From: an uncultured Planctomycetota bacterium
GTDB lineage: Bacteria > Planctomycetota > Planctomycetia > Gemmatales > Gemmataceae
Reading direction: 5' to 3'
Assembly (NCBI GenBank): GCA_963849325.1
Contig: CAWKHF010000003.1
Coordinates: 64,001-128,000, forward strand
DNA: 64,000 nt
The notes beneath the pieces were generated by a model. That model saw only the letters and a program-made list of their open reading frames with translations, had not been told where the DNA came from and ran no database searches. Positions 28,936 to 58,653 of the stretch are shown piece by piece (within the stretch, counting starts at the first letter, position 1; each line of letters opens with the position of its first letter). Both the position numbers and the translations under genes were made by a program.

Positions 28936-29599
28936 CGTTTGCCCCCATGTTTCCATGGGGAACGGACTATCTCATCACCCCAGAGGGGTGCAGGGCGCTC
29001 GAGGCTGGGTTATTGGATGGGCTCCTCACCAGCTAGTCTCTGCACCTTCCCGGCTACTGATTGCCCTTCGCCGGGCTTGGCTCAGGATTGCCGCCACCCA
29101 AAGTGCTGCGGGTTCCCTGCTAGGCCAACCGTTTCAATTCCTTGAGTAAACAAGGAATCTGCAGGTCTTCCTCCGTGGCGTGGTAAAACGTCACCGTACT
29201 GGCTTTGGCCAGGTATTGCTGAATCAGCAATAACTCCGACCTTTTCACCACAGAGTAGGGGAGGATGAGATCGCATAGAGCCAATCATGCCTGTTTTCGA
29301 TAGACGCGGATGCGATAAGAAGGCCGCGTCGATCTCGGCCTTGGAAGCGGGCCTTTCGTGGAGTAGGCGATGACGTTGTCCACGAGGATGGCAACGACCT
29401 TCCGGTGCATGGCTTCGCTAATACTCTCAATCGTCACACGGCAACTCATGCCGCGTTCCGAATCTCGATGCACCGTCACGCAGCCTTCGCCATCAATAAT
29501 TCCCGCCAGCCAGGCAATGTCGGCAATACCCATCTCCCCTGCCTAGTTTAATTCACCCTGTTTTCCACTGGCCATTGCTGACCAGCGCTGCGATTCTTC
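28936..29599 (-). ncRNA. Group I intron (664 nt) between tRNA positions 35 and 36
   Basis: P1 exon GCUGU with IGS GCAGC (U.G at the splice site); P2 with GCAA loop; P3 CAGGGUG/CGCCCUG; Q AAUCCUGAGC; R GCAGAGACUA; S GAGAUAGUCC; P8; P9 with GAAA loop; terminal G at 28936. Confidence 0.95.
29120..29533 (-). CDS. Single-motif LAGLIDADG homing endonuclease, 137 codons, with an in-frame TGA at 29285-29287
   Basis: IAWLAGIIDGEGCV motif; same frame continues past the TGA as LALCDLILPYSVVKRSE...LKRLA*; AGGGGAG immediately upstream. Confidence 0.88.
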
Positions 29600-56784: not shown

Positions 56785-57213
56785 ATGCCCGCCAATCCGT
56801 TCGAGGTCCTGCGTCTGGACCCCTCCGCGACCGAGGAGGAGATCGTGCGCCAGGCCGGACGGCTCCGGCAGCGCGCCACCGACGAGACGGCGCGAAACGC
56901 CATCCGTCACGCCGTGCAGGCGCTAACCGCCCATCCCGAGGATCGGCTACGGTTGGCCCTGTGGACCCACCCGGCGCCGCGCCATCACTGGCCGGCGCTG
57001 GAAGGTCTGGTCGCCGCCTTCCAACGTCCGCCGATCGCCGACGCGGACCCCTGTCCGACCCTCGATGTGGAAGAGTTCAGAGACCTTCTTAAGTCTTTAT
57101 CCGCCGAGGAACTCGAGTTGCCCCCTCTGCCTTTCGAGCTGATCGGGGCCGACGAGGAGGGCGAGGAAATCCACCGGCAATCGGCGGAGGCGATGTGGCA
57201 GAGCTTGCTTTAG
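56785..57213 (+). CDS. Degenerate J-domain-like protein
   Basis: NPFEVLRLDPSATEEEI start; canonical HPD loop missing. Confidence 0.55.
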   Translation: MPANPFEVLRLDPSATEEEIVRQAGRLRQRATDETARNAIRHAVQALTAHPEDRLRLALWTHPAPRHHWPALEGLVAAFQRPPIADADPCPTLDVEEFRDLLKSLSAEELELPPLPFELIGADEEGEEIHRQSAEAMWQSLL

Positions 57214-57229
57214 AGGCACTAACCAAATA

Positions 57230-57295
57230 GGCGAGCGGGGGGCGTAAGCCCCCTGTTGACGGCGAAAAACAGGGGGCTTACGCCCCCCGCTCGCC
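57230..57295. repeat. REP-like palindrome, family B, intergenic
   Basis: GGCGAGCGGGGGGCGTAAGCCCCCTGTT...AACAGGGGGCTTACGCCCCCCGCTCGCC. Confidence 0.9.
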
Positions 57296-57389
57296 AAAAA
57301 GTTACAGCTTGCTTTCCGACTCCTGGGCGTGAGAAGGCAGTCGGCGCAAGAAAATCTACGTTGTGCGGATTTCTTTCTTGCTGAAGAAT

Positions 57390-57530
57390 GAAAAAACGGT
57401 TAAGAAAGAGGTGTTGGCACGGGGTAAGGCTGAGACTCGCAAATCAGCCAATCCCCGTGCCACGTGTGGGAGGTGTGAATGTGCGGGAAGTCCTACTGAA
57501 AGGGCTGGGACTCGCTACCAACCCTTCTGT
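57390..57530 (-). ncRNA. Candidate sigma-54-dependent small RNA
   Basis: Predicted +1 at 57530; hairpin 57499-57527; C-rich linker; long hairpin 57415-57462; T-run at 57391-57396; no credible ORF. Confidence 0.55.
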
Positions 57531-57540
57531 CTAAGAGAAT

Positions 57541-57557
57541 TGCAACCATCGTGCCAA
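57541..57557 (-). promoter_or_regulatory. Consensus sigma-54 -24/-12 promoter
   Basis: TTGGCACGATGGTTGCA matches TGGCACG-N4-TTGCW. Confidence 0.8.
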
Positions 57558-57969
57558 TTCTCGGCCGTCATCCACACCTTCCCACCCTCTCTTCCTAAGT
57601 TCTCTGGAATTCGGCATTTCTGCCTGATAGCTTCGTGTTTCGCCTTGCTCGGTCTCCCTTGTTCCATTTTGCTCCAGCCCGTCAATGCGCTGTTTTGACA
57701 CATCCCGGTGCTTCATTTTGCGGAAAGTGTTTCATTTTCATCTTCTCCACGCCACCCGAACGCACGCCAGAGGACACGGACGGCACGAACGGATACTGTC
57801 AAAATGGATAGTGCTCCCTTGTACTTCCGGCTCCGCGTCGAGATTTGTGAAAGATCCCGCGAGGTAGACGCCTACTCGTGATAAAGCGCCTGGAACGGAA
57901 AAGCGCCTCTTTCCAGCCGAGCCTTCCGCGACCAGGCGGCTTGTGAACACGATCCTTGTCGGGAGTGGA

Positions 57970-58653
57970 ATGATGCCCTTGCGTCGTCCCGCGCTCAGCA
58001 TCGAACAGATCCTCATCTGGGCGGATGTCCACCGTAAACAGCGGGGCAAGTGGCCAACCTCGCGCAGCGGCGTGGTGCGCGGCGGCTGTGGAGAGAAGTG
58101 GTGGAACATCAACGAGGCCTTGATCCACGGCTGGCGCGGCCTGCCCGGCGGCGATACGCTGCCGCGTCTGCTGGCGCGTTACCGAGGCTGCCGCAACCCG
58201 CGCGGCCAGGCGCCGCTGGCGGCGGAACAGGTACTGGCCTGGGCGGACGCTTACCGTCAGCGAACCGGCCGCTGGCCCAGCGCGACCGGCCAGCCGATTC
58301 CGGAAGCGTCCGGGCTCACCTGGCGGGCCATCAATCTGGCCCTGACGCGGGGCCACCGCGGCCTGCCGGGCGGCACGTCGCTGGCCAAACTCCTGAGACA
58401 GCATCGAGGAGGATCATCTGGCAGGGGCCAGCCAACCCTGACGGTCGGGCAGGTGCTGGCCTGGGCCAAGGCCCACCGAGGACGCACGGGACGCTGGCCC
58501 TCGGCCGCTTCGGGAGCGATCTCCGAAGCGCCAACCAATACCTGGATGGCGGTCAACGCGGCGCTGTGTCATGGCAACCGCGGACTTCCGGGCGGCATGT
58601 CGCTCGCGCGCTTGCTGCGCGATCTGACCGGCCACCGAGGCCGGGCCGGGTGA
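57970..58653 (+). CDS. Hypothetical protein with three ~70-aa repeats
   Basis: WA[D/K].[H/Y]R...G.WP...G.RGLPGG..L..LL repeated three times. Confidence 0.75.
   Translation: MMPLRRPALSIEQILIWADVHRKQRGKWPTSRSGVVRGGCGEKWWNINEALIHGWRGLPGGDTLPRLLARYRGCRNPRGQAPLAAEQVLAWADAYRQRTGRWPSATGQPIPEASGLTWRAINLALTRGHRGLPGGTSLAKLLRQHRGGSSGRGQPTLTVGQVLAWAKAHRGRTGRWPSAASGAISEAPTNTWMAVNAALCHGNRGLPGGMSLARLLRDLTGHRGRAG

Follow-up and report, generated by a model that had tools for sequence, protein, structure and literature searches.

A candidate sigma-54-dependent small RNA gene with twin hairpin loops in planctomycetes of one order

A consensus sigma-54 promoter that points at no protein gene raises the question of what it serves. 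Such a promoter lies on the minus strand of the 64,000-nucleotide stretch of DNA analysed here (the window; positions 64,001 to 128,000 of contig CAWKHF010000003.1, assembly GCA_963849325.1), which comes from an uncultured planctomycete of the family Gemmataceae, order Gemmatales. Together with two hairpins, the linker between them and a U-rich tail, it forms an element at positions 57390-57557 of the window. An initial annotation, made from the letters of the window, had proposed a trans-acting small RNA (sRNA) of about 140 nucleotides (nt) that pairs with ribosome-binding sites, and the sigma-54 consensus, the hairpins, the CCUCCC linker and the T-run on which it was built were all found in place on the minus strand (Table 1). 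After comparison with related genomes, we considered that the locus is best read as the gene for a trans-acting sRNA of roughly 130-140 nt, constituting a sigma-54-type transcription unit without a protein gene. That a real sRNA gene is present at the locus we regard as very likely. The first reading was thus partly supported, being right on the kind of element and unproven on the anti-Shine-Dalgarno (anti-SD) mechanism.

Table 1. Positions in the window of the parts of the minus-strand element and of the upstream repeats; motif counts refer to 40 diverse members of the RNA family.
Feature	Position	Strand	Basis or remark	Motif counts
Sigma-54 -24/-12 element TGGCACgatggTTGCA (TGGCAC-N5-TTGCA)	57556-57541	minus	exact consensus match; predicted start near 57530	
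Hairpin P1 GAAGGGTTGG/CCAGCCCTTT	57527-57499	minus	10-bp stem; fold	
P1 loop UAGCGAGUC, 9 nt	57517-57509	minus	fold; core GCGAGUC	GCGAGUC 40/40
Linker, 36 nt, ending in CACCUCCCACAC	57498-57463	minus	variable in sequence and length; unpaired in minimum-free-energy and consensus folds	GGA 2/40
Pyrimidine-rich patch CCUCCC at linker end	57473-57468	minus	unpaired	within 22 nt before P2: CCUCC 23/40; CCUCC or CCUUCC 31/40
Long hairpin P2/P3	57462-57415	minus	P2 encloses P3	
Outer helix P2 GGCACGGGG/CCCCGUGCC	57461-57453 with 57424-57416	minus	9 bp, near-invariant	GGCACG (5' strand) 39/40; CGUGCC (3' strand) 39/40
Inner helix P3 GGCUGA/UCAGCC	57449-57444 with 57433-57428	minus	fold	
P3 loop UUUGCGAGUC	57443-57434	minus	fold; core GCGAGUC	GCGAGUC 40/40
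3' tail AACACCUCUUUCUUAACCGUUUUUU, U-rich	57414-57391	minus	alignment; conserved core CAYNUCYU	CAYNUCYU 38/40
T-run	57396-57391	minus	read in sequence	
Repeat array, about CAAAAYNNNRCA, four direct copies	57739-57728, 57720-57709, 57697-57686, 57671-57660	minus	candidate enhancer (upstream activating sequence, UAS)	

The RNA element and its conservation

Concerning the promoter, the window has no exact match to TGGCAC-N5-TTGCW other than the -24/-12 element. When one mismatch was allowed, three matches were obtained against 1.53 expected, and 17 of 100 shuffles of the window reached three; the promoter match by itself is not beyond chance. The predicted fold of the RNA (-47.6 kcal/mol, z = -3.08) was moderately better than those of shuffled sequences, of which 2 in 200 were as stable. 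The element goes beyond chance because promoter and RNA recur together in relatives, with compensatory base changes.

A BLASTN search with positions 57380-57600 matched promoter and RNA in 17 of 41 related genomes, comprising all ten others of the same genus, five further genera of the same family and two genomes of a second family. The similarity began exactly at the promoter and stopped at the U-rich tail. When the 17 sequences were aligned and folded with MAFFT and RNAalifold, the consensus contained 25 pairs, ten of them with compensatory changes. Two covariance models were used, R1 built from the RNA part alone and R2 from 40 diverse members of the family; neither contains promoter columns. 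R1 identified one copy in the genome to which the window belongs and matched 87 of the 151 genomes of the order, with no match in 150 other genomes of the phylum. With R2, matches were found in 104 of the 151 genomes, corresponding to 49 of 60 genera and to 91 of 126 high-quality genomes, and the copy number was nearly always one per genome.

The alignment of the 40 members was 96.4% paired over its cells, and 17 of the 25 pairs had changed on both sides. None of 500 shuffles reached these values, and controls in which the pairing partner was slid along were 34-53% paired. This alignment was fitted to the model and therefore favours structure; the independent MAFFT/RNAalifold result agrees with it. 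In P1, nine of ten pairs had changed on both sides, and four of five pairs of P3 displayed compensatory change. P2 was 100% paired, with five invariant pairs and three with compensatory change. All 30 covariance-model hits that were checked had the element TGGCA[CT]-N5-NTGC at 21-27 nt ahead of where the model begins (27 by pattern; the other three, with GTGC at -12, were read by eye). The initial annotation had looked to relatives for conservation of promoter and hairpins, and both were found to be conserved.

The same annotation had named a scan of Rfam as a check. No match to the RNA was found among the 4227 families of Rfam 15, either at the gathering score or at E values up to 10; the only matches around the locus were microRNA-like ones on a neighbouring palindrome (57228-57297) and one to SCARNA4 at 15 bits. 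The literature that was searched on sRNAs or sigma-54 in Planctomycetes, Pirellulales, Gemmata and Gemmataceae yielded no sRNA of this kind. In public records, eight of 80 pattern loci among the matches listed were confirmed by the model, under the titles Gemmataceae bacterium (four), Gemmata sp. (one) and Planctomycetota or planctomycete (three), which gives titles and not a distribution. A search of sequencing runs for 57200-57800 listed none of RNA that covers it, the best entry being a small-share run labelled metatranscriptomic but flagged as probably DNA. Contigs of relatives from four runs matched parts of 57318-57523; being without ends or strand, they are neutral on expression. We take the RNA family to be new and, as far as searched, confined to one planctomycete order.

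No conserved open reading frame (ORF) was found in the RNA region. A minus-strand 35-amino-acid (aa) GTG frame and the plus-strand frames that overlap the RNA were rejected as coding, since the indels of the family alignment are not multiples of three; the overlapping frame at 57363-57698 (plus) has a GC content at third codon positions (GC3) of 0.54, a non-coding composition. At the 40 loci of the family, the flanking frames fall in many unrelated Pfam families, and about one in two downstream frames is oriented towards the RNA gene. The genes downstream of the RNA in the window, a convergent gene of 156 aa and a TPR gene, are common to only four other loci. As the neighbours vary between genomes, we take the sRNA gene to be free-standing, and the claim that the promoter serves no protein gene agrees with this result. 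The accompanying statement that both flanking genes lie on the plus strand needs a qualification, in that the upstream one (57943-58653) is only a probable coding ORF, with a GC3 of 0.80 and no Pfam family. This ORF contains an internal repeat, its self-match reaching 43% identity over about 80 aa.

The varied neighbours and the non-coding overlapping frames make a cis-acting leader and an antisense role unlikely. The latter had been offered as an alternative in the initial annotation, directed at a plus-strand mini-ORF (MCGKSY, 57479-57499), and must be abandoned, as the family alignment varies most, and is rich in indels, over this stretch. A leader, that is, the 5' untranslated region of a sigma-54-dependent messenger controlling the downstream gene, which would have been lost in the window's own genome, would agree with the roughly half of the 40 loci in which the next downstream frame is on the same strand, sometimes within 20-120 nt. 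We nevertheless consider it very improbable: the downstream families are unrelated (DUF7133, PhoPQ_related, ABC transporters, E1 dehydrogenase, FIST, HEAT and others), at the remaining half of the loci the following gene runs towards the RNA gene, and in the window what comes next is a convergent gene accompanied by a terminator-like palindrome. We give just as little credence to a conserved DNA element without a stable transcript, such as a protein-binding palindrome or a mobile-element remnant, beside which a sigma-54 motif would have arisen by chance. The promoter motif alone is indeed not significant in one window, and transcription of the sRNA is a prediction. However, compensatory changes preserve the RNA helices as the sequence changes, the spacing to the sigma-54 element is constant in 30 of 30 hits, and the element is single-copy in each genome, unlike the repeated palindrome beside it.

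As for the 3' end of the free-standing sRNA gene, the T-run that the initial annotation had placed after the long hairpin is present, but it begins 19 nt past the P2 stem, so hairpin and T-run do not make up a canonical intrinsic terminator. A scan of 57100-58000 called no canonical terminator at P2 and no sigma-70-like promoter; the closest minus-strand terminator-like call (57288-57272) is inside the neighbouring palindrome. In members of the genus, the conserved sequence extends beyond the T-run as far as a CAAGAARRAA motif (CAAGAAAGAAA, 57380-57370, minus), reaching about 57370, and the transcript in the genus may therefore exceed the family core.

Upstream repeats and candidate activator

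Sigma-54 promoters of the enhancer-dependent type would require both RpoN and an enhancer-binding protein. One rpoN gene is present in the window's genome, and rpoN was found in 147 of the 151 genomes of the order. PF00158 gave 23 matches in the window's genome, corresponding to about 14 full-length enhancer-binding-protein genes. The CAAAAYNNNRCA array is located 104-198 nt upstream of the -24 element; it is conserved in the genus and can be aligned across genera. In 39 loci, the 12-mer occurred 40 times between -230 and -100, as against twice between -100 and 0 and once further upstream. A hidden Markov model of the array, run on the 8.16-Mb genome of the window, matched this locus only (E 4.2e-07; next best, E 2.8). 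This is how an enhancer-dependent sigma-54 promoter with its own dedicated activator is organized, the array being the candidate UAS. We also considered GGCAC within P2 as a second -24 element or a sigma-54 decoy and rejected it, as the family alignment has no -12-like element at the right distance.

Concerning the activator itself, we could not identify an enhancer-binding protein among the flanking frames of the 40 loci, and in five complete genomes the nearest gene for such a protein was 45-460 kb from the RNA gene; an adjacent activator gene was thus discarded. A tree was constructed from 65 enhancer-binding proteins of three RNA-carrying and five RNA-free genomes. Clade (a) held one protein from each of the three carriers and none from the five non-carriers, while clades (b) and (c) contained carriers only, each being present in two of the three. 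The order was searched with one member per clade, with thresholds of E <= 1e-120 for (a), best E <= 1e-130 for (b) and E <= 1e-110 for (c). Clade (a) was found in 112 of the 151 genomes (both sRNA and protein in 99, sRNA only in 5, protein only in 13, neither in 34; odds ratio 52). The corresponding figures were 88 genomes for clade (b) (66, 38, 22 and 25; odds ratio 2.0) and 108 for clade (c) (85, 19, 23 and 24; odds ratio 4.7). Across the order, the presence of the receiver-domain proteins of clades (b) and (c) does not track that of the RNA, and they were rejected as the activator.

The co-occurrence of clade (a) with the RNA has a p-value of 6e-18, which overstates the case because related genomes are not independent. 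Splits within genera are the stronger argument for the assignment. In genus g28, the carriers G101, G118, G120, G122 and G127 all have the clade (a) protein, the three listed of the other five genomes gave no match to it, and the genus tally is 5 of 10 for the protein as for the RNA. Genus g26 has the protein in 6 and the RNA in 5 of 14 genomes, and in genus g23 two genomes (G061 and G075) are without both. We also looked for divergent copies of the RNA in five genomes that have the clade (a) protein and gave no RNA hit, where the promoter-plus-loop pattern was found at the level of the reversed-pattern control. Six of seven clade (a) orthologues scanned displayed the architecture FHA - GAF - Sigma54_activat - AAA lid - HTH_8; no GAF domain was detectable in the seventh, which comes from an RNA-free genus. 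From this co-occurrence we infer that an unlinked FHA-GAF-AAA+-HTH protein probably activates the sRNA promoter.

In four complete genomes (loci L252, L253, L255 and L256), the candidate activator gene often has other genes upstream of it on the same strand. In L252 and L255 these encode an Rce1-like CAAX protease, a family-2 glycosyltransferase and an unnamed protein of about 480-505 aa; of the three, L253 retains the protease and L256 the other two. These neighbours hint at a link to the cell envelope. Another FHA-type enhancer-binding protein (L075:4636-6495, where L075 is G000:C5:314000-326000) was rejected as the activator since its orthologues occur in RNA-free genomes too. Its gene is divergent from a glutamine synthetase gene, and a csrA gene (L075:6604-6837, minus) converges on it. 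Enhancer-binding-protein genes split over two to four frames were found at C5 ~792.9-794.9 kb, C12:1038357-1038856 and C12:1059425-1059925, which points to indels introduced by faulty assembly or to several pseudogenes.

Mode of action

The explanation of the whole that we favour, and hold tentatively, is a free-standing trans-acting sRNA that depends on sigma-54 and an unlinked activator and serves as a base-pairing riboregulator. RNA polymerase with sigma-54 would bind the -24/-12 element (57556-57541), and the FHA-GAF-AAA+-HTH_8 enhancer-binding protein would activate it from the CAAAAYNNNRCA array 100-200 nt upstream. Ser/Thr-kinase signalling may be the input to the activator, as suggested by its FHA domain, and taking into account that the array is found nowhere else in the genome, the sRNA would be its main or only output. 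The sRNA would act post-transcriptionally. The pyrimidine-rich single strands that flank P2 (CCUCCC and CACCUCUUU) may cover purine-rich ribosome-binding regions, the two identical GCGAGUC loops may provide specificity by loop-loop contacts, and the outcome would be reduced translation of a small set of mRNAs. A match to Hfq was not found in the window's genome (84.7% complete), and base pairing would therefore be Hfq-independent. Taken alone, base pairing as the mode of action is one that we infer with some reserve; we regard it as possible.

If the predicted chain from kinase signal through activator and sigma-54 to sRNA is correct, it would operate in most genomes of one order. What the locus yields is a bounded RNA family, for which a covariance model is available, together with a promoter class and candidates for the enhancer and for its dedicated FHA/GAF activator; it would extend the short list of sigma-54-dependent sRNAs outside Proteobacteria. 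The twin GCGAGUC loops are unusual and point to a partner.

A pyrimidine patch is present ahead of P2 in 32 of the 40 sequences. The 3' end of the genome's own 16S rRNA reads ...GGAUCACCUCCUUUCUAAGGA (also given as CACCUCCUUUCU and GGUUGGAUCACCUCCUUUCUAAGGA), and the genus sRNA tail CACCUCUUUUCUAA is nearly identical to it. SD-like GGAG or GAGG occurs in 34% of the -18..-3 windows, against a background of about 10%, when starts are taken crudely as the first ATG; SD usage in the genome is moderate.

Several points weigh against the base-pairing explanation. Transcription of the sRNA, its start and its 3' end are predictions, and no U-tract directly follows P2. Conservation of the anti-SD motif (CCUCC in 23 of 40) falls short of that of the loops and of P2, neither of which is anti-SD (GCGAGUC in 40 and P2 in 39 of 40). 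Target prediction with the C-rich linker, as envisaged in the initial annotation, did not bear out pairing with ribosome-binding sites. When linker, tail and loops were examined with RNAduplex against 4028 crude start regions, they performed no better than shuffled segments (linker mean -16.9 against -18.4 for shuffles; the tail alone was slightly better, at -9.5 against -8.6). For the loop complement GACUCGC, 110-nt windows around start codons held 24 occurrences where about 29 were expected, and there were 7 tandem pairs where 9.5 were expected, so that it was enriched in neither setting; both it and GCGAGUC are absent from the rRNA operon. As regards the activator, the assignment rests on co-occurrence among related, non-independent genomes, and 18 genomes are discordant. 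Among these are six of the second family whose matching protein is no more than about 51-53% identical, and in the one of the six that was scanned (G027) the matching protein had no detectable GAF domain. In the window's own genome, the activator gene (C5, ~792.9-794.9 kb) is split into four frame pieces that cover nearly the full length. An assembly error is as likely here as a pseudogene, since other enhancer-binding-protein genes of the assembly are also split.

One start region on contig C11, with an SD sequence, an ATG and two GACUCGC 15 nt apart, came up as a possible target and was treated as chance. It belongs to a long repeat protein, with TPR-like repeats recognized by eye.

Regulatory RNAs can also act by titrating proteins: CrcZ titrates Hfq/Crc, GlmY titrates RapZ and RsmZ titrates RsmA. 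We weighed the possibility that a sigma-54-dependent RNA titrates a dimeric or repeated RNA-binding protein, which would recognize its two identical loops (GG-UW-GCGAGUC-CC) and the invariant helix P2. Among the unpaired bases, conservation is highest in the GCGAGUC loops, kept in both hairpins of all 40 sequences, and the sequence of P2 is kept in 39 of 40 despite its being a helix, a pattern typical of recognition by one conserved macromolecule. The mRNA target signal sought in the duplex search, near starts and in tandem was not found, and RNA-binding regulators are plentiful in the genome, with nine CsrA-family genes and no Hfq found. On the other side, the loops do not carry the GGA motif of CsrA, which even in the linker appears in only two of 40 sequences. 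Repeated identical loops occur in base-pairing sRNAs as well, among them RsaE, 6C and the alpha-r14 family. In addition, Pxr provides a case of an invariant stem that is required only for the RNA to accumulate (PMC5684412). On balance, we retain protein titration as a second mechanism beside base pairing, although we consider it somewhat unlikely.

The likeness between tail and 16S rRNA raises a bolder, and in our view improbable, alternative, in which P2/P3 followed by CACCUCUUUCU would imitate helix 45 and the anti-SD tail, and the RNA would either compete generally for SD sequences or act as a decoy that captures a factor specific for the 3' end of 16S rRNA. The 16S rRNA ends in ...GGUUGGAUCACCUCCUUUCUAAGGA, and the genus tail AACACCUCUUUUCUAA, which likewise follows a hairpin, differs from it by one base over CACCUC-UUUCUAA; a second CACCUCC is present just ahead of the hairpin in the window. 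Across the family, however, only CAYNUCYU is kept, with the base that matches the first C of CCUCC varying among C, U, A and G. The P3 hairpin loop is unlike that of helix 45, and the tail could be no more than a U-rich transcript end. We find it rather improbable, too, that the RNA, instead of being an ordinary mRNA-pairing sRNA, is a decoy that combines two identical T-arm-like hairpins with imitation of the 16S 3' end (a hairpin and then CACCUCUUUCU), and that, driven by kinase, FHA-GAF protein and sigma-54, it titrates a conserved factor of translation or ribosome biogenesis, or SD sequences globally. If this were true, the RNA would be a phosphorylation-controlled brake on translation specific to a planctomycete order.

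The T-arm likeness concerns the loops. Apart from an additional G, their sequence comes close to UUCGAGUC, which consists of the T-loop UUCGAGU, found in 18 of 92 predicted tRNAs, and its closing C. A tRNA T-arm has a 5-bp stem and a 7-nt UUCRANY loop; the loops of the sRNA are of 9-10 nt and read UWGCGAGUC, and the likeness is a resemblance only. Among the 92 predicted tRNAs, a tRNA-Asp(GTC) outside the window (G000:C4:434519-434593) is the sole one with GCGAGUC. This tRNA is atypical, with a D stem of 3 bp and a D loop that lacks GG, and its T loop reads UGCGAGU; a second tRNA-Asp is encoded on C10.

Related systems and neighbouring features

Among the sRNAs that depend on sigma-54 and an enhancer-binding protein, the closest parallel is Pxr of Myxococcus xanthus. 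It is reported to have a predicted sigma-54 promoter, an enhancer region, an adjacent gene for the NtrC-like activator PxrR, and a last stem-loop with an invariant 8-bp stem segment required for RNA accumulation (PMC5684412). Both RNAs are small and non-coding, with a predicted sigma-54 promoter, an upstream enhancer-binding region and stem-loops, and the invariant 8-bp stem of Pxr parallels the near-invariant 9-bp P2. The two differ in that there is no sequence or model similarity between them and no activator gene within 45 kb of the RNA gene in the five complete genomes. Moreover, the input domains of the candidate activator are FHA and GAF in place of a receiver domain, and the RNA has two hairpins with identical loops.

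In Proteobacteria, Qrr1-5 (activated by LuxO), GlmY/GlmZ (GlrR) and CrcZ (CbrB) are sRNAs that depend on sigma-54 and an enhancer-binding protein. In these systems, as proposed here, one activator serves one pathway from sites upstream of a sigma-54 promoter with the sRNA as main output, and the genome-unique repeat array fits a dedicated activator. The differences lie in the phylum, the lack of an Rfam match, the FHA-GAF activator, which is unlinked, and the upstream sites, which form direct repeats instead of palindromes; no Hfq was found in the genome. The RNA thus seems to work like sigma-54/enhancer-dependent sRNAs while belonging to no described RNA family.

RsaE/RoxS, 6C and the alpha-r14 'cuckoo' family are sRNAs with repeated C-rich or anti-SD loops. 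Repeated identical loop motifs and pyrimidine-rich single strands able to cover SD sequences are common to them and to the present RNA. Its loop motif GCGAGUC, however, is neither C-rich nor anti-SD, and the anti-SD-like patch is in the linker, where it is kept in only 23-32 of the 40 members. With CsrB/RsmZ, the RNA shares a structured form and the presence of one motif in more than one hairpin loop, in a host with nine CsrA-family genes. It lacks the defining GGA loop motif, has only two loops, and was not assigned to the CsrA sponges.

Between the convergent 156-aa gene and the sRNA gene lies the palindrome mentioned above (57228-57297, GGCGAGCGGGGGGCGTAAGCCCCCTG...), which is 70 nt long, near-perfect and similar to repetitive extragenic palindromic elements. 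Its arm occurs in 115 copies on both strands of the genome, three of them in the window, and hundreds of metagenome contigs match it. The sole terminator-like call on the minus strand falls within the palindrome, which also draws spurious microRNA matches. The sole Rfam family over threshold in the window is the group I catalytic intron (RF00028), found at 28943-29162 on the minus strand with 56.6 bits against a gathering score of 50.

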